From IMG/VR virus record IMGVR_UViG_3300028887_000103, positions 16,373-80,372 of that record: a stretch of 64,000 bases of DNA. One strand, given 5' to 3'. Below, in pieces: positions 11 through 29,033 of this stretch. How positions within the stretch are numbered: position 1 is the stretch's first letter; every line of letters begins with the position of its first letter. The notes beneath the pieces are model-generated. The model did no database searches. It was not told the origin of the DNA and saw only the letters and a program-made list of their open reading frames with translations. The translations under genes were made by a program, and so were the position numbers. Source of the stretch: a virus (lineage: Duplodnaviria; Caudoviricetes).

Positions 11-3000
11 ATGACTTCTGATGAACTTAGCACTTTGAATGATATGTGGCTGAAGAAGCAATCTATTGCTAATGACGAAGGTGTCCGCCAGATGACCGAC
101 CTCAAGGAAGACACCCTAGAGCAAATCAACCAGTTGAAAAATGGTGTAGATGGCACTACAGTAGATATTGAAGATGTCGGTGGTAGATTGGTTGAGAACA
201 TTGCCGAGGGTGTTTATGGTGCTATGCCTACGCTAGAAAGTGCGTTAGACCAACTTGGCGATTACATTGAAAAAGCCAAGAGAGAACTAGCGAAGTCTGG
301 CGGTGTTGGCACAGACACTACAGGTGGGGGTGTTAACACCAATGGCACTGATGATTTAGTTAGTGGGATTAAAGAAGGTATCACTGCCAATCTTGAAAAA
401 GTCAAGAGTATGCTTCCGAATATTATACTAGGGGCTATTGGTGCTTGGGGAGTAGTGAAGTTTGGTCCGAAAGTAGTAAAGGCTCTGTTCAACAAAATTG
501 GGCAAGGTTTGTTGAACGGTGGGCTTGGTGCGCAAGGAATTGCCGGTTCTCTATTCAAGTCTGCTGACCTAGGGCTCGGATTAAGAGATGGGCTACTTGA
601 AGTGGTTGACAAAATCCCTCGTGAAGATACTACCGTCAGTGGAAAGATATTAAATAAGATTCAAGGATGGTTGAGTCCAAAAGAATCATCGCAAGTAGCA
701 AAAACAGCGAAACAAGTTACCAAGACAAGCAAACCAGTTCAACAGATTGCTGAAAGTTCTACACAAATCAGCCAGAGTGTTCAAACGACAGGCCAGAGTT
801 TCTCCAAGGCTAATGGTTGGATGAGTTCAATTCAGCAAGGGGCAAAGACAATAATCTACATTGCAGGTGCTATTGCCGCTGTCGCTGGTGCTCTATGGCT
901 TGCTTACAATGCTTTGAAAGATGTTGACTTTGTAAAGTTCCAAGTCTGTCTAGTGGAGATGGTAGAGGCTGTCGTAGTATTCGGTGCATTGGCAAAACTT
1001 GCCGATATGCTTAAAGTCGGGCTTGCTGGAATCTTGGTAATTGCTGGGGTTGCGGCTGATGTTGCTCTTATAGGTTTGGCTTGTAGTTCGGCTTACAATG
1101 TGATGAAAGATATTGATTTTGTCAAATATCAACTCGTGATTGTAGAAATGATTGAAGCGTTGACAGTCTTTGGTGGATTCAGTGCTTTGCTTGGTATATT
1201 CAGTCCGATTGTCGGTCCAGGGTTATTGATGATTGCTGGGGTGGCTGGAGACGTTGCTCTAGTAGGAATGGCTTGCAGGTCTGCTTATGATAATATGAAG
1301 GATATTGACTTTGGAAAGTTCCAGCATATTATTCTTGAGATGATTGAGGCTCTCGGTGCAATGGGTGGATTTAGTGCTATATTCGGGCTTTTTGCACCAC
1401 TTGTTGGTTTGGGTTGGTTAAGTATTACTGCTATCTGTGATGAACTATGTAAAGTTTCAGATGCTCTATACAAAGTCTATATGACAGTTCCTGATGACTT
1501 TGATGGAGTCAATGACAAAATTGACCTGATTATGAAAGTTCTGAATAAGATTGCTGATACTGACCTCGGAACTTTGATTGGCACGATTGTAGCGAGCTGG
1601 GAAGTCGGACCGTTGACCAGAATCATAGATATGTATGTCTATGTCGCAGAACAGTTGAATAAATTATCCCAGATTGAACTAAATGCAGACGCTATTGAGG
1701 GTAACTTGAATTATATTAAGACTACTCTGGATACTATCAAGGCAAAAACTGATGTGATTACTGGGTGGCTAGAGGCTTCTGCGTTAGATATGGAAGCATC
1801 CACAGTCGAAAATGCCGGTAGGATTGTGATTGTCTATGGCAATATGGTAGATGCTTTGAACAAACTGGCTAACTTCAAACCAGATGAAACGGCCATTGCC
1901 AAGAGTCTTGTTTCAATGGTAGCCGTGATTACTCTATTGCGCAATCAGTCTTACGGTGGACGTGGTCTATTCAATATCTTTAACGATATGGGCACTGTGG
2001 CTAATGATGTTGACAAAATTAAGAGTATCGTCAACAACTACTTAGAAATGATACCGACCATTAAGTCGTTAGGTGATAACGAGAATAAGATTTCAGACGC
2101 GCTAGAAACCACAGTAATCGAGAATGTTGATAATATTAAAGATATCGTCCTTGCGATTGGCTCTGTGAATACGGGCGGTTGGATTGACCAGAAGGAAAGC
2201 GATGTGGGTAAAATCCAGAGCATCCTTAACAAGTTTACTGAACTTGAACCTGTAATTTGGCAGATTGCTCAGTTTAACTTGAGTTATCTAGAAGGTGACA
2301 ATAGTGCGAAAAGTAAGATTGAAAAAATCCGAAATATCGTTCTGGAAATTGGCAAGGTTGACACTGGTGGTTGGATTGACCAAAAAGAAAGTGATATGGG
2401 TAAGATTCAAAGTATCTTGAATAAGTTTACTGAAGTTGCCAAGACCACTCAACTACTAGGTAAATATCCCGTTGCTGATAACGCAACAACTTGGGTCCAA
2501 ACAGTAAGAAACCTAGTCTGGGAAATTGGGCAGATTAACAATAGCCAATCGAGTAGTCTAGACAGCAAGATAGAAGTTATTGAAAAAAGCAAAACCATAG
2601 CACAGAAGTTAGGTGAGTTTGCTTCAGTTATTCAGAATCTTCAGAGTGTTGATAATGGAAGTGTCATCGAATCATTGACGAGTGCTTTGAATCAACTATT
2701 AAATGGAGTGTCCGATAGCCTCAGCAATAGGACGAGTGACTTTGAAAATATCGGTGCTAAACTTGGTCAATCTCTTGCGTCTGGTGTTCAGAGTCAAGGC
2801 GATGCTATGACTAATGCAGGGAATGCTCTACAAAGTGCGTTCTGGTGGGCGATTAACAATAGAATGCAAGATGAATACTACCAAGGTAGGTCATTGGGCG
2901 AGAGGTTCCGTCAAGGCTTATATGATATAGATTATGGCAATGCAGGGTGGTGGGCTGTTCAAGGCTTCATTAACGGTGCTTGGGGTAGAGCAGGAAGTGG

Positions 3001-15099: not shown

Positions 15100-16113
15100 T
15101 TATACCATATTACGAGGCTTTATTAACTGCCAGATTTGCTTATTGAGGGCTTCATCGCCTCTTTTTTTCAGCGTGAAAATTAACGACCTCATCTCTTTTG
15201 ATAAAGAATTATCTAGGGCTATGTCCTTGTCAGACAAGTGCTTTCTAGGCTCATACTCGTTCTTTACGGCAAGGAAAATCAGCGAGTGGTTATATTGTAG
15301 TTCGTCTTCCCACACTTCCATCTGACGCATAAATTCGTCTGGGATATCTAAATCTTGAATTCGTTGACCACTGGATAGGAGTTCCCACACCCTCTTTTTT
15401 GTGCAATCGGACAGTAGTCTGTGGTGGTTAATAAAGTATTGAGTCTTGATTTTAACTCGTTCAAAAGTCTTCAAGTCTTGTGCGACCACCCCTTCCACTT
15501 TTTGCTTTAAGTATTCTTTAGCCTCTGCCAATGATAATTCTTTAGCGATAGGAAATGGGCATTCTTCGTCTGGAATAATTTCGTTGAAGTTCTCATCTCT
15601 TATGGCCCAGCAAACTAACTTTGGCACTGGGTGTTTAGTTAGAATGATTGCTTCGTCACCTGGAAAGTTCTGCAAAAGTTCACAGAAATAAGTATAATTC
15701 GGGGTCATCTTTAGTAAGATTTCGTCTGTGAGGAACTTGTCCACAGCATCAATATACTGGTTTTTGAAACTCCCTCTAGAAGTGACAATCAGTCCCCAAT
15801 CAGAGTCTAGTTTGATTGAGATATAATAACCATCTAGTTTTTCGGAAATTCTAGCGTTCATCAAGTTGATTTCGGCGGCTAGAGGCTCTCCTTGGTTAAA
15901 AAACTTTTCAGGGCATCTAATGACAATCTTATAATTACTGTCTAATACTAAACCCCTTGTCTGTCTAGTAATCTTGTTCCAGTTGCCTTCGAACTGGGTT
16001 TTTTGGGAGTAGTTATAGATTGACAATGGTAATCTTGGGTGGTCAACCTTGCGAATATAGCCATCATCTACTAAAGAAATCAAATCGTCAATGTCTTGTT
16101 CACTTAAATTCAT
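15100..16113 (-). CDS. RNA ligase (T4 Rnl1-like nucleotidyltransferase)
   Basis: Motif I EKLDG, EGVV and RVKIK motifs; N-terminal 'YNYSQKTQFEGNW...RGLVLD' typical of Rnl1. Confidence 0.85.
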   Translation of the reverse strand: MNLSEQDIDDLISLVDDGYIRKVDHPRLPLSIYNYSQKTQFEGNWNKITRQTRGLVLDSNYKIVIRCPEKFFNQGEPLAAEINLMNARISEKLDGYYISIKLDSDWGLIVTSRGSFKNQYIDAVDKFLTDEILLKMTPNYTYFCELLQNFPGDEAIILTKHPVPKLVCWAIRDENFNEIIPDEECPFPIAKELSLAEAKEYLKQKVEGVVAQDLKTFERVKIKTQYFINHHRLLSDCTKKRVWELLSSGQRIQDLDIPDEFMRQMEVWEDELQYNHSLIFLAVKNEYEPRKHLSDKDIALDNSLSKEMRSLIFTLKKRGDEALNKQIWQLIKPRNMV

Positions 16114-16180: not shown

Positions 16181-16954
16181 CTACCACGGAAGTTCTTTGC
16201 CGTCAAGAGAGATTTTGACAAAATTCTTGTCCTCAAGGGTAAGCAAAGAGTCGTCACCATACGGGGAATAATCAGAATAGGTAGAGAATGTGTCACAGAA
16301 ATAGATTTCTTCATCGTAGTTATTATAGAAGGTTACGGTCTGGTGTGGAGTATGTCCTACAATCTGAATTACTGGAAACCAATCTGCTATGAGTTCAACT
16401 GTGTCTGCCCAGAGTGGACTAGGGTCTTGGTGTCCTCCACGAGCATAACCTACATCGCCAAGTCCGAAGAAAGCGTCTTCACAATTTTCTTGTTTACGGT
16501 GATGAAAGGCATAGTTGGTTACTTTCATAATATCCCACGGGCTTTCAAAAGGTTTTTGAAAATACTTATTCAACCACGATTTAGTGAATCCTGCGTGAGA
16601 ACAGATAAAGGAACGGTCTTTGGGAACGAAAGCGATGTCAAAAAGTTCTTCGTATTTGGTAAAGAGTGGAGATATTAACTGTGAAGTCATAAAGTTATAA
16701 CCAGAACAAGCAAAAGGTTTGCCAAACCATTCAGATAAGTCGTGGTTACCTAGCAGAAGAATAACTTTGCCTGGGTTTGATAATTTGAAATCAATCAGAT
16801 TTTCTAATAACTGTTTAGAGTATTCTGGTGCTGACATCCAATCGTCAACATAATCGCCAAGGAAAATAACTTTGTCGTATCCTTCGGACAATTCTTTAAC
16901 CCGTTCTAGTATCCCGTTCTTGGTGTGTAAATCCCCTACGAATAAGTATTTCAT
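16181..16954 (-). CDS. Calcineurin-like metallophosphoesterase
   Basis: GDLH, GDYVD, GNHD, SHAG and GHT motifs. Confidence 0.9.
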   Translation of the reverse strand: MKYLFVGDLHTKNGILERVKELSEGYDKVIFLGDYVDDWMSAPEYSKQLLENLIDFKLSNPGKVILLLGNHDLSEWFGKPFACSGYNFMTSQLISPLFTKYEELFDIAFVPKDRSFICSHAGFTKSWLNKYFQKPFESPWDIMKVTNYAFHHRKQENCEDAFFGLGDVGYARGGHQDPSPLWADTVELIADWFPVIQIVGHTPHQTVTFYNNYDEEIYFCDTFSTYSDYSPYGDDSLLTLEDKNFVKISLDGKELPW

Positions 16955-22466: not shown

Positions 22467-22684
22467 AACAGGAGGAATGGCCAATGACAAAATTGCCAGA
22501 ATATTATAGTGTCCCGATACAATGCGTTAACTGTGGCAGTAAATTCATAGATGACGACCCAGGGTATTATTCTGACCCAGGAGTTATCGGGGAAGCAATA
22601 AATATAAAGAAAGGAATGAAAATCTGCGAAGTTGAATGTCCACTCTGCGGATGTCTAACACTAGCGAGATGGAGGGTAAGATGA
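22463..22684 (+). CDS. Zinc-ribbon hypothetical protein
   Basis: CVNC and CPLCGC motifs. Confidence 0.6.
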   Translation: MKQEEWPMTKLPEYYSVPIQCVNCGSKFIDDDPGYYSDPGVIGEAINIKKGMKICEVECPLCGCLTLARWRVR

Positions 22685-23493
22685 GTCAAAGAGATAAAGC
22701 AAAAGTTATTCTGGAAGAATTGAAAAACAGAGGATTCCATCCAGAGGGAGTTAAATATCAGGGTGGCTACTTCCTGTTTGATTTCGGAAAAGATATGGTC
22801 GTTCATTTTCGGCTAAAAGAGTGTAAAGGTTGGCTGTTTGCTATCTGGTGGAATGTAGATGACAAAAATCAATTCGACTTCTTTACTCAATTTGAAAAGA
22901 ATATAGATAAGTTCAAGCCGACTGCTTCTAATTTTGTCCAAACCGATATATCTTATGCGAAAAAGGATGCCCGCTCTATCGTAGATTTCTATCTTCTGCC
23001 GATAATAAAGTTTATTCGGAATCATAAATATGTGGCTTGGTGCTATGACAATTACTATTACCTCAAGAGTTGGCAGTATATGACAGGTTTCGAGGCTTGG
23101 CGTGAATATACAAAATACAGTCTGAAATATTACAGGTTGAAACCGTTGGTAGAAAAAAGAATGGTAAAGCGATGGAAGAAGATTATGCGAGGGATTTGCG
23201 ACCAAGAACTAGAGAATTATGCCATCGTGGATGATAATGTTGGCGGGGTAATCTGCTATCCGAGATTTCATATTGTCTGCGAAAACTTTAAGGAGGAAAA
23301 AGTAGAGAAAGGTTACTGGACACTTGAGATAGATGAACAAGATGTCAAACTAAAAAAGAAGATTGATAGGTTCAACAAAAAACTAAAAAGAATGCAGAAG
23401 AGATTCGGGCATATGTTTGATGTGGATGAAATCAGAACTCATATCGGAGTTGTCGTAAATGGAAAGAGACTTGTAAAACAGAAGAAGAAATAG
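22681..23493 (+). CDS. Hypothetical protein (start re-called to 22681)
   Basis: GGAGG SD; ATGA overlap with the previous stop. Confidence 0.7.
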   Translation: MSQRDKAKVILEELKNRGFHPEGVKYQGGYFLFDFGKDMVVHFRLKECKGWLFAIWWNVDDKNQFDFFTQFEKNIDKFKPTASNFVQTDISYAKKDARSIVDFYLLPIIKFIRNHKYVAWCYDNYYYLKSWQYMTGFEAWREYTKYSLKYYRLKPLVEKRMVKRWKKIMRGICDQELENYAIVDDNVGGVICYPRFHIVCENFKEEKVEKGYWTLEIDEQDVKLKKKIDRFNKKLKRMQKRFGHMFDVDEIRTHIGVVVNGKRLVKQKKK

Positions 23494-23596: not shown

Positions 23597-23758
23597 ATGA
23601 TTACAATAGGTATAATGATAATCGGTTTAGGAATAGGACTTATCTGCTTTGCTTTACTCCTCATCGGTGGGTTTGTCGGAATCTGTCTAATACCAGTTGC
23701 TATAGTTCTGTGTCTATTGAAGGCTCTGTGGAAAATGACTTTTGACAAAGAAAACTGA
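23597..23758 (+). CDS. 53-aa very hydrophobic membrane protein (not in ORF track)
   Basis: SD AAGGAG; MITIGIMIIGLGIGLICFALLLIGGFVGICLIPVAIVLCLLKALWKMTFDKEN. Confidence 0.7.
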   Translation: MITIGIMIIGLGIGLICFALLLIGGFVGICLIPVAIVLCLLKALWKMTFDKEN

Positions 23759-23770
23759 CCTTGCTATAAT
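23742..23770 (+). promoter_or_regulatory. Consensus promoter upstream of the RNA island
   Basis: TTGACA-17 nt-TATAAT with TG extension. Confidence 0.85.
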
Positions 23771-23789
23771 TAAAATACGCATAACAAAC

Positions 23790-24075
23790 AAGCCCATTAA
23801 AAAGTGAGTAGGTTGATAATATCGGTTTGATGATGCCGAGGTAGCCAAAAATACTGTCGTTAAGAAGATACGAGATGGGTGGATGGTGACGGCGAAGAAT
23901 ATCACCACGAGTCCCCAATCCAGAGGTTTAGAAGAGAGATTCGCCAAGAATATAGTTCGGTGACGCTAAACCAAACCGTGAGAACGGAGTTGCAAGGACA
24001 GTAACCTTACAAGCCGAACCAACCAATACTAATTGCCAGCACGGGTGAAGTTATGTTTGATTGAAATGCTGGCAT
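23790..24075 (+). ncRNA. Candidate structured ncRNA 1 (upstream of tRNA)
   Basis: No credible ORF; nested helices (TCGGTTT/AAGCCGA, GGCGAA/TTCGCC, CCGT-GAGA-ACGG, TGCCAGCA/TGCTGGCA); boundaries approximate. Confidence 0.55.
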
Positions 24076-24077
24076 AT

Positions 24078-24153
24078 TGTGGGGAGATGCGGAAGTCGCA
24101 TACTGGCCTCATAAACCAGTTGTTAGTAGGAGCGTTACCTGCCCCCACAACCA
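24078..24153 (+). tRNA. tRNA with CAT anticodon (Met or Ile2) and non-canonical T-loop
   Basis: 76 nt; acceptor TGTGGGG/CCCCACA; encoded ACCA end; D-stem ATGC/GCAT; anticodon loop CTCATAA; T-stem GTAGG/CCTGC with loop AGCGTTA. Confidence 0.8.
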
Positions 24154-24155
24154 TA

Positions 24156-24185
24156 TTGACAATGAAAATATGAATGTGCTATAAT
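24156..24185 (+). promoter_or_regulatory. Promoter for ncRNA 2
   Basis: TTGACA-18 nt-TATAAT with TG extension. Confidence 0.75.
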
Positions 24186-24191
24186 GTAAGC

Positions 24192-24468
24192 AGATTCGGA
24201 CTCGTGCGTCGTGCACGAAGAAAAAGCACCTTTCAGTTGTGGCAGTAGTAGCATAATAAACCCCCCAAGACGGTTAATGCTGAATGTAAATCCGAGAGGA
24301 ATATATCTGGGAGGCGATAAGCCGAAGGATGAACTGCAGAAATGTTTACATTTGAAAATCGGGCTTAAAATATATGGAAAATGCAACACGAAGCCTTGGA
24401 GCCCGTCAATGTAGAGACACTGGCGAGAGTTAGTTCCTACCTACTGTCATAACTGAAGGGTGTTTTTT
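24192..24468 (+). ncRNA. Candidate structured ncRNA 2 closed by a 28-bp helix
   Basis: 24221-24248 pairs fully with 24441-24468 (24 Watson-Crick + 4 G-U); interior has GAGA tetraloop hairpins; ends in a T tract. Confidence 0.7.
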
Positions 24469-24486
24469 GTGTTATAATTTGGATGA

Positions 24487-24593
24487 GGGGCTGACAGGAT
24501 TAGAATCTTAAAGAATGTTACGGACGAAAAAGGGTTTGAAAATAAGTCTGGAGTACTTAAGATGACGTGGTTTCGACACCACCAGCTCCACCA
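24487..24593 (+). ncRNA. Minimal tmRNA-like RNA (tRNA-like domain only, 107 nt)
   Basis: 5' GGGGCTG pairs with CAGCTCC-A-CCA (G3-U70 alanine identity); D-arm-less 5' segment; P2-like helix ATCTTAA/TTAAGAT; GAC-GTGGT-TTCGAC-ACCAC T arm; own TGTTATAAT -10 just upstream. Confidence 0.8.
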
Positions 24594-24606
24594 GGAGGAG
24601 AGGAAT

Positions 24607-27525: not shown

Positions 27526-28152
27526 ATGGTTACGATAATTACTTTAGTTAGCAATCGGAAAGGATTTGAAAATCTGAAGAGAAATCTAGTCAGTTTTGAA
27601 TCTGATTGGAAACTTGGGGTGGATATTCTTTGTATTGTTTCAGACTATGACTTATATCTAGAATGTCGGAATTTCTTGCACGAAAATGTAGATAGAGGGG
27701 AATGTCTAGTTGTCTTTGACCAAGATGCTACCTTAAAGTCTGGAAAAGAATATCTGGATACCAAGAATGAATATGTGTTCTTACTTGCCGAGAATGTCAG
27801 AGTTCCGAGTGGTGGTATCACTAAACTATACAAAAACTATCTTGAAAAACCACAGGCAGGGTTCATCACAGGGGAGTGGAACCAATTCCCGACTGTTCGC
27901 TGGGTCAAAGATATCTATGGTGCTCCGAAGTATATCTATTCAAATGAGCCGTCACCTTATGGGTTAAGAATGGATATAGATGTGGCAGAAGTCCACGGCA
28001 TAATGACAAAAACTAGTCTATACAAAGAATTGTTCTGTGCAGAGGATTTAGATGGTTACGGTAGTCATAGTTTCGGGATACGATTAAGAAGGCAAGGATA
28101 CAAAAATTATATTAACACAGGGGTAGAATACAAATATGGAGGTAACGAGTGA
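27526..28152 (+). CDS. Putative GT-A-fold glycosyltransferase-like protein
   Basis: N-terminal 'VTIITLV' strand, 'YVFLLAENV' at the DxD position, C-terminal 'FGIRLRRQGYKNYI' GT2-like segment; canonical DxD not seen. Confidence 0.4.
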   Translation: MVTIITLVSNRKGFENLKRNLVSFESDWKLGVDILCIVSDYDLYLECRNFLHENVDRGECLVVFDQDATLKSGKEYLDTKNEYVFLLAENVRVPSGGITKLYKNYLEKPQAGFITGEWNQFPTVRWVKDIYGAPKYIYSNEPSPYGLRMDIDVAEVHGIMTKTSLYKELFCAEDLDGYGSHSFGIRLRRQGYKNYINTGVEYKYGGNE

Positions 28153-29033
28153 AAATAATTATGTTGAAGGGGTTGCCTGCGAGTGGAAAATCTACTTGGG
28201 CTAGGGAGCGTCAAAAGGAAGGTGGCAATTATCTAGTCATAAGCAAAGATGAAATTCGTAAGATGTTCGGCGGGTATGCCCCCAAGCGAGAGAAAGATGT
28301 CTTAAGAGTAAGAAATGAACTGATAAAACTGGGCATTAAACTACGCAAGAATGTAATAGTGGATGATACCAACTTGAACATCAAGCACGAAAGATATATC
28401 AGACAATTGGCAAATGAACTAGGGGTGAAGTTTGAAATCAACGATGACTTTATGGAAGTTCCACCAGAAGAATGTATAAAACGAGATTTACACCGTGGAG
28501 AAAAGGCCGTCGGTGCTAGCGTGATTTGGGATATGTATTATAGATGGGTGGCACCAGACCCACAAGTCAATTTAGATGTAAACTTTGACAAACCGAGGTG
28601 TGTGATTTGTGATGTCGATGGCACATTGGCTCTGAATACAGAGGGCAGAAGTTTCTACGATTTGTCCAGAGTTAACGAGGATACGGCTGACCCGTTTGTC
28701 TCTTGCGTAGTAGATGCTCTGTATAACTATGGCACTGAAATCAATGGGGATAAATACCCTAGCATAATTATCTTGAGTGGAAGGGAAGAAATAAGTAGAG
28801 AAGCCACGGAGGGGTGGCTTAAACAATATGGTATTCCTTATGACCAAGTGATAATGCGAGAAACTGGGGATAAACGGAGTGATAGTATTGTGAAGCGAGA
28901 ACTCTATGAAAAATATGTAGAGCCAAACTACTGTGTCTTGGGAGTGATAGATGATAGACCTAGCGTCTGTGCTGTCTGGCGTAGTTTAGGCTTAAGAGTT
29001 GCTCAAGTTGGTAACCCATATATTGATTTCTGA
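28149..29033 (+). CDS. pseT: Polynucleotide 5'-kinase/3'-phosphatase (T4 PseT-like)
   Basis: GLPASGKST P-loop, VIVDDTN, then HAD domain DVDGTL, SGR, IDDR. Confidence 0.9.
   Translation: MKIIMLKGLPASGKSTWARERQKEGGNYLVISKDEIRKMFGGYAPKREKDVLRVRNELIKLGIKLRKNVIVDDTNLNIKHERYIRQLANELGVKFEINDDFMEVPPEECIKRDLHRGEKAVGASVIWDMYYRWVAPDPQVNLDVNFDKPRCVICDVDGTLALNTEGRSFYDLSRVNEDTADPFVSCVVDALYNYGTEINGDKYPSIIILSGREEISREATEGWLKQYGIPYDQVIMRETGDKRSDSIVKRELYEKYVEPNYCVLGVIDDRPSVCAVWRSLGLRVAQVGNPYIDF

Follow-up and report, generated by a model that had tools for sequence, protein, structure and literature searches.

A 28-bp closing helix marks a probable new family of structured phage RNA

What occupies some 860 nt without any credible gene (23746-24606) in the replication module of a phage? 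The question arises in a window of 64,000 nucleotides, positions 16,373 to 80,372 of the IMG/VR virus record IMGVR_UViG_3300028887_000103, an 80,372-bp sequence rated "complete" by CheckV; coordinates below are those of the window unless a contig is named. An initial annotation, made from the letters alone, had proposed a standalone RNA at 24192-24468, here termed ncB, closed by a long helix. The comparative analysis described here indicates that ncB is very probably a real family of structured non-coding RNA (ncRNA) that was previously uncatalogued. The fuller reading, in which a stand-alone gene produces a stable predicted ncRNA of approximately 277 nt, belonging to a new family and acting in trans through its shape, is the one we modestly favour, and the specific role of scaffold or binding RNA is put forward tentatively.

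The closing helix, P1, is the feature that first sets the locus apart. Its arms, at 24221-24248 and 24441-24468 on the + strand, are separated by 192 nt and pair at 28/28 positions when read as + strand RNA, with 24 of the 28 pairs being Watson-Crick (86%) and the exceptions being G-T, T-G, G-T and G-T. The initial annotation's description of a 28-bp helix with only G-U imperfections was reproduced both by a repeat finder and in the sequence itself, whereas the - strand version of the same helix would contain four A-C mismatches. Among uninterrupted helices of Watson-Crick and G-U pairs spanning at most 330 nt, P1 has the greatest length in the window (28 bp), against a mean of 17.7 bp and a maximum of 22 bp for the longest helix in 40 dinucleotide-preserving shuffles. 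The predicted fold energy is -95.7 kcal/mol on the + strand (z -5.3), compared with -74.0 kcal/mol on the - strand (z -3.6).

Homologues were sought on contigs encoding relatives of a 285-aa protein whose gene lies upstream, and through one metagenome pattern scan, with ncB then being located on those contigs using blastn, nhmmer and a covariance model (CM). Besides the window, this yielded six full-length copies and one that is cut, all on metagenomic phage contigs and all in the same gene neighbourhood. The copy at L011 958-1216 (-), 96% identical to the window, was the only true one to emerge from the metagenome pattern scan, the other two matches (L012 and L013) being due to chance. Those at L007 7586-7852, L015 1765-2024, L019 4347-4606 and L020 1863-2122 are each 74% identical to the window; the copy at L014 5652-5907 (68%) has its 3' tip removed by the contig end, and that at L004 6847-6952 (77%) is cut at the contig end. 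At least one homologue comes from a sample labelled as a bovine metagenome, and several of the sample names presumably denote rumen surveys. Pattern scans of IMG/VR for ncB, and for the neighbouring ncA and tRNA-like domain described below, found nothing beyond the phage's own record; a pattern scan over one genome per prokaryote species found no ncB, nor was there any ncB at 23 more distant phage loci, to which relatives of the 285-aa protein from IMG/VR and genomes had led, and the only matches of the CM in three genomes were short and terminator-like. Hence the ncB family appears to be rare in the collections reached.

Covariation analysis, which the initial annotation had named as a check on its proposal, provides strong evidence for a conserved fold. 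RNAalifold, applied to an alignment of seven sequences, predicts 77 pairs, with compensatory double changes in 30 of them. Firstly, 95.7% of alignment cells are paired in this fold, compared with 38-45% when the partners are slid by 1-3 columns. Secondly, sliding the partners reduces the number of covarying pairs from 30 to 3-6, and 0/500 shuffles reach the observed values. Thirdly, with a CM of ncB the + strand obtains 270 bits and the - strand 30, meaning the covariation, like the G-U pairs, is strand-specific, which upholds the initial annotation's claim that selection acts at the level of the RNA. Open stretches within ncB vary in strand, frame and length among the homologues, with no conserved open frame. 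Given this absence, and the strand bias of the model, ncB can be regarded as an RNA-level, strand-specific and non-coding element.

The resulting architecture, on the + strand throughout, is a five-way junction of P1, P2, a P3 domain with three hairpins, P4 and P5. P1 (helix 1) contributes 28 pairs, with 96.9% of cells paired and compensatory changes at six pairs. The P2 hairpin (24251-24280) comprises stems at 24251-24254/24277-24280 and 24259-24262/24272-24275 (helices 2 and 3), which are 100% paired, covary at 5/8 pairs and are capped by a C-rich loop, L2, at 24263-24271. The P3 domain (24281-24354) is enclosed by a long-range stem (helix 4; 24281-24289/24346-24354), with compensatory changes in 7/9 pairs, around the hairpins P3a (24290-24301, with a GAGA loop that is GAAA in L007), P3b (24305-24330, GAUAA loop) and P3c (24336-24345, GAAA loop); helices 5-8 are supported too. 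The P4 stem (helix 9; 24360-24366/24399-24405) has seven pairs, three of them compensatory and 93.9% of cells paired, below a loop that is approximately 32 nt in the window, ranges over approximately 30-40 nt in the family, and is variable in sequence. Finally, the P5 hairpin (24411-24440) contains an internal loop and a GAGA tetraloop at 24425-24428, its helix 10 consisting of 11 pairs with 96.1% of cells paired and three compensatory changes. The window's ncB therefore carries three GNRA tetraloops, two GAGA and one GAAA, and both the GAGA-capped hairpins and the inner helices AATGTAAA/TTTACATT and CGGGCT/AGCCCG, all noticed in the initial annotation, are present and supported by covariation. 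Palindromic loops were considered as a means of ncB self-association, and are not conserved.

A search for covarying helices among the unpaired columns returned a single match, joining loop L2 to the 3' end of the P4 loop. In the window, this pseudoknot pairs CCAAG (24265-24269) with CUUGG (24395-24399), and in other members of the family the strands are CCUAG/CUAGG, CUUAG/CUAAG and CCUGA/UCAGG. On a model-based alignment, its four core pairs form in 7/7 sequences, three of them covarying, and ten alignment cells carry double changes, compared with at most three in slid controls. A pseudoknot is hence part of the fold, but not either of those suggested initially: the same search did not return pairing of CCCCAAGA with TCTGGG, the C-rich loop instead pairing with CUUGG, nor pairing between the two copies of ATATAT.

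Not all of the conservation can be ascribed to base pairing. Although upper P1 covaries, its basal 10 bp, GCACCUUUCA/UGAAGGGUG, are nearly invariant, including a U-G wobble: GCACCUUUCA, at the 5' base, shows almost no variation across the family, and UGAAGGGUG, at the 3' base, is invariant other than for a two-base change in L015. This near-invariance points to a sequence-specific role for P1 beyond pairing, whether in termination, processing or recognition.

The ends of ncB are those of an independent gene. A sigma-70-type promoter at 24156-24185 (+) combines a -35 TTGACA (24156-24161), an 18-nt spacer and an extended -10 TGcTATAAT (24177-24185), matching the consensus hexamers at 12/12 positions in addition to the TG extension, in agreement with the initial annotation's claim that the RNA has its own promoter; transcription is predicted to start at approximately 24190-24193. 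The -10 TATAAT is kept in those homologues whose aligned stretch reaches it, in most cases with the preceding TG. At the other end, where a T-tract had been reported, the 3' strand of P1 finishes in a U6 tract (24463-24468), and six to eight U end ncB in every homologue not cut by a contig end. The conserved -10 box and U-tract support ncB being an independent transcription unit. Just past the predicted start, the minimum free energy fold contains a 5' leader hairpin (24202-24218, +) with a 6-bp stem and 5-nt loop, which has counterparts with different stem letters in L011, L007, L014 and L004, and none in L015.

With GCACC/GGGUG at its base and the U-tract directly after it, P1 looks like an intrinsic terminator and probably doubles as one. 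That can be only one of its roles, because the "loop" it closes is itself conserved, as a fold of 190 nt. In L015 the U-tract of ncB is succeeded by another terminator hairpin, of canonical type (2030-2052), which suggests that P1 alone may terminate transcription incompletely.

No catalogued family accounts for this RNA. Rfam 15 gave zero matches across the whole window at gathering scores, and zero over ncB even at E<=10, in agreement with the initial annotation's proposal of a compact structured ncRNA of uncatalogued class, for which an Rfam search had been another of its suggested checks. On the reading favoured here, host RNA polymerase would make ncB at a high level once the phage DNA enters the cell. 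P1 would then provide the stem of the terminator and, in addition, a rigid handle or a stalk for processing, its length making it a natural candidate substrate for RNase III, while the compact core would work in trans by shape, as a scaffold for, or binder of, another macromolecule. The partner might be one of the co-encoded RNAs, or a component of host translation or RNA metabolism.

Those co-encoded RNAs surround ncB. Directly upstream of every ncB copy lie two further elements, of which ncA (23778-24077, +) is a second conserved structured RNA of approximately 300 nt, also detected with nhmmer and preceded by its own promoter at 23742-23770, again with 12/12 matches. Across eight sequences or loci, 61 pairs are predicted in ncA, 31 with compensatory changes, and its long invariant blocks include AGAUACGAG, CCAGAGGU and GAGUUGCA; it has no match in Rfam. 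Fused to its 3' end is a tRNA-like element (24078-24153, +) with a CAU anticodon loop and an encoded CCA, for which Rfam tRNA matches were obtained. In L007, L011 and L014 ARAGORN calls a tRNA-Met(CAU) at this position, and in L015 a different tRNA, but it makes no call there in the window, L019 or L020; homologues of the element lie at L007 7460-7531, L011 1279-1356, L014 5526-5601 and L015 1675-1745. These differences between loci suggest that in some phages the element may have a processing or structural role rather than one in decoding. A potential contact between UGCAAC in the ncB P4 loop and GUUGCA in ncA was noticed by eye, and is not kept across the family. In two further contigs that carry ncA, a TnpB (IS605 OrfB) gene lies between the gene for the 285-aa protein and ncA (L006 3701-4849(-) and L016 4830-5912(-)); both are without ncB.

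Starting 18 nt downstream of ncB is a miniature tmRNA-like alanine-acceptor domain (TLD) of 107 nt (24487-24593, +), with its own extended -10 at 24470-24478, a G3:U70 pair and an ACCA end. It matches the tmRNA model RF00023 with 37.7 bits (E 3e-13), under the gathering score, and has homologues, likewise downstream of ncB, at L011 730-839(-), L015 2668-2777, L019 4746-4854 and L007 8763-8864, so that ncB usually has such a domain after it. Within this family G3:U70 is kept, the acceptor stem shows a compensatory change from C5-G to A5-U, and P2 covaries; the conserved A-rich 20-nt loop contains GGGUUUGAAAA, or a close variant, in 4/5 copies, L007 differing. A ribosome-binding site and start codon follow approximately 10-20 nt past the CCA end in 4/5 loci, L011 being without them, and the gene that begins there encodes an HNH protein in the window, L015 and L019. 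In relatives, the 5' side of the domain is fused to another RNA, ncC, of approximately 100 nt, closed by GUGAGGG/CCCUCAC and absent from the window. It lies at L011 ~840-942(-), L015 2550-2667, L019 4630-4745 and L007 8650-8762, with the promoter TGCTACAAT, which is TGTTATAAT in L007. An N run at L020 ~2198-2296 masks most of ncC and the tRNA-like domain.

Upstream of these RNAs lie the genes for an O-like/DnaD-like initiator and the 285-aa protein, and downstream those for an HNH endonuclease, RusA and a polymerase exonuclease subunit. The 285-aa protein (22636-23493) is always found upstream of the RNAs and has no Pfam or PHROG family; its AlphaFold model, though confident (pLDDT 85.7), is only weakly similar (Foldseek E 0.05, prob 0.92) to the "double-wing" DNA-binding domain of T4 MotA, and gives no link to the RNA. 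Elsewhere, the window encodes a T4-type polynucleotide kinase-phosphatase (Pnkp; 28149-29033, +; AAA_33 and HAD_PNKP, E 3e-39) and an Rnl1-family RNA ligase (15100-16113, -; E 4e-10; phrog_562, 1e-36), together a tRNA-repair pair that hints at a host that cuts tRNAs. Searches for a phage-encoded reverse transcriptase and for SmpB found neither. Against 50,697 phage records, blastn with the flagged region and tblastn with a 999-aa phage protein each gave zero matches, and the large terminase (TerL) is at most 29% identical to those of cultured phages. Hence the phage has no close relative among cultured phages; the promoters and ribosome-binding sites suggest a host among the Bacillota.

The closest parallels in setting are two ornate RNA families, GOLLD and ROOL, which are encoded by phages near tRNA islands (PMC5737381; bioRxiv 10.1101/2024.12.08.627333). 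GOLLD consists of two separately folding domains joined by a variable linker that sometimes holds a tRNA (bioRxiv 10.1101/2024.12.08.627333), whereas ROOL was first found in cow rumen metagenomes, occurs in phages and prophages near tRNAs, and combines pseudoknots with multistem junctions (PMC5737381). Like GOLLD, ncB is an elaborate phage-encoded RNA beside tRNA genes, and the order of domain, tRNA and domain is mirrored by that of ncA, the tRNA-like element and ncB, a tRNA-like element indeed lying between the two RNAs in this record. With ROOL it may share the rumen setting, at least one homologue coming from a bovine metagenome. However, GOLLD exceeds 800 nt, compared with about 250 nt for ncB, which is a separate molecule with its own conserved promoter and terminator and has no detectable homology to GOLLD; ROOL averages approximately 581 nt with six multistem junctions along with three pseudoknots, whereas in ncB a single pseudoknot accompanies one five-way junction and one inner junction. 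The GOLLD model RF02032 (416 positions covering the conserved 3' domain, with a gathering score of 150 bits) matched nothing at E<=10 anywhere in the phage record. The ROOL model RF03087 (574 positions, gathering score 99.1 bits) likewise gave no match at E<=10; its control genomes were also blank, making that search weak by itself, but the window-wide Rfam scans had shown no ROOL either. Hence ncB belongs to neither family, and the likeness is one of setting and style, not of mechanism. Together, ncB, ncA and the tRNA-like and tmRNA-like elements constitute a conserved phage "RNA island", a setting reminiscent of the tRNA islands beside which GOLLD and ROOL are found.

Several observations count against the reading of ncB as a member of such an island that acts in trans by its shape. 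Compared with GOLLD or ROOL it is a much shorter RNA, transcribed separately and without detectable homology to either, and the analogy in any case predicts little, because the function of those RNAs is itself not known. The RNAs of the island are not strictly interdependent, as L006 and L016 carry ncA and the tRNA-like element without ncB, and no conserved complementarity between ncB and ncA was seen. Furthermore, the seven full sequences represent only about five distinct lineages, the window and L011, and L019 and L020, being near-duplicates, such that the covariation counts are not counts of independent events.

Better-understood RNAs each share some part of the architecture. Precursor ribosomal RNA (rRNA) is also enclosed by long, near-perfect leader-trailer helices formed from the flanks of a structured RNA, which are cut by RNase III during maturation, but the ncB stalk carries a terminator U-tract, has a basal 10 bp invariant in sequence, and does not enclose rRNA. 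The pRNA of phage phi29 is expressed from a strong early promoter, with its 5' and 3' ends paired in a helix protruding below a multi-helix junction, and ncB resembles it as a phage RNA with a strong promoter and an end helix below such a junction; it differs in lacking an Rfam match, in lying within the replication module, and in belonging to a phage with a conventional large terminase. The 6S RNA is a rod-like helix with a large central bubble, in contrast to the five-way junction of ncB, which has no Rfam match to 6S.

An alternative that overlaps the trans-acting reading, rather than excluding it, is that ncB could be a decoy or inhibitor that binds a protein of the host and blocks it, for instance a translation factor, RNase III or a defence nuclease that targets RNA. 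Such a role would suit an early promoter of the strongest possible kind, and the phage's possession of Pnkp and Rnl1, the T4-type answer to tRNA-cutting defences, along with tRNA-like RNAs. It would also suit P1, part of which is invariant in sequence where a plain helix would need only to pair, suggesting sequence-specific recognition. Yet the Rfam comparison reveals no mimicry of a known RNA, and we consider a decoy unlikely. It is slightly more doubtful that ncB, ncA, the tRNA-like element and the mini tmRNA-like domain form one multi-RNA device directed against host translation or ribosome rescue, with ncB as a structural subunit. Cages of GOLLD with linked tRNAs have been speculated to display the tRNA ends, and by analogy one possibility for such a device would be an RNA-only assembly displaying tRNA-like ends that can be aminoacylated.

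Catalysis is improbable, although the complexity of ncB invites the idea. Its size, together with a five-way junction, a pseudoknot, GNRA loops and several invariant unpaired stretches, lies within the range of catalytic RNAs, and ncB adjoins RNAs that need their ends processed, so that its core might catalyse a reaction such as self-cleavage or self-processing, or might trim the neighbouring tRNA-like and tmRNA-like precursors in the manner of RNase P. However, ncB has no match at E<=10 to the Rfam self-cleaving ribozymes, RNase P, or group I or II introns, a conserved candidate cleavage site is absent, and host RNase P would be enough for the processing. Motifs reminiscent of RNase P were picked out by eye (GAUGAA, CAGAAA and GGGCUUA), but their strand order is wrong for that enzyme's helix P4, and Rfam is silent on them.

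The location of ncB raises the alternative of an RNA that primes phage DNA replication or activates it, whether by an R-loop or as a primer; ColE1 RNA II and the origins of some lactococcal phages are reported to work in this way. The locus does lie in the replication module, between the gene for the O-like/DnaD-like initiator and those for RusA and the polymerase exonuclease, and has two tandem consensus promoters. Nevertheless, it contains tRNA-like and tmRNA-like genes instead of iterons or AT-rich repeats, a primer would not need a pseudoknotted, tetraloop-rich fold closed by a terminator, and the cumulative GC skew does not turn there, making an origin-associated role quite improbable.

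A cis-acting function is less credible still. P1 and the U-tract are shaped like an intrinsic terminator, and the core is of a size with large riboswitches, so ncB might be a cis-regulatory leader or riboswitch, or a mere oversized terminator or DNA palindrome governing read-through into downstream genes. The 28-bp P1, however, is overly stable for switching, and the unit that comes next is under a promoter of its own (24470-24478). The downstream content also varies, being ncC and the TLD in most relatives and a glycosyltransferase gene in L007. Unlike the loop of a terminator, the interior is conserved with covariation, and the strand-specific pattern of G-U pairs and covariation indicates an RNA-level element and not a DNA palindrome. 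We therefore regard this explanation as very improbable.

Lastly, ncB recalls tmRNA (RF00023) in its long closing helix, like tmRNA helix 2, around a pseudoknotted interior, in the acceptor and T-arm features and G3:U70 of the neighbour that follows it, and in a GCA-started 10-codon frame ending at UAA in the window, but the idea that it is the pseudoknot and message part of a split tmRNA whose mini tRNA-like domain is the alanine acceptor is barely credible and was dropped for want of either a conserved frame or a pairing partner: the frame is 4, 6, 10 or 20 codons long in homologues, its changes being the compensatory changes of P3; the tRNA-like domain closes on itself with a covarying P2, leaving no free strand for ncB, and in relatives is fused to the different RNA ncC; the tmRNA models match only that acceptor domain, a separate element at 24487-24593 outside ncB; ncB itself has no tRNA-like part, conserved tag frame or match to any tmRNA model; and there is no phage SmpB.

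Outside ribosomes, ribozymes and riboswitches, few large pseudoknotted RNAs combine several conserved tetraloops with invariant unpaired stretches, and earlier RNAs of such complexity have repeatedly opened new biochemistry. The ncB family also offers unusually clear handles for experiment: its promoter and terminator are defined, it is small enough for probing and cryo-EM, its pseudoknot can be tested, and it comes with a conserved set of companion RNAs in phages that encode tRNA repair. It adds a third, smaller and modular case to the ornate phage RNAs found near tRNA islands, and could help to show what the association between such RNAs and tRNA islands serves.
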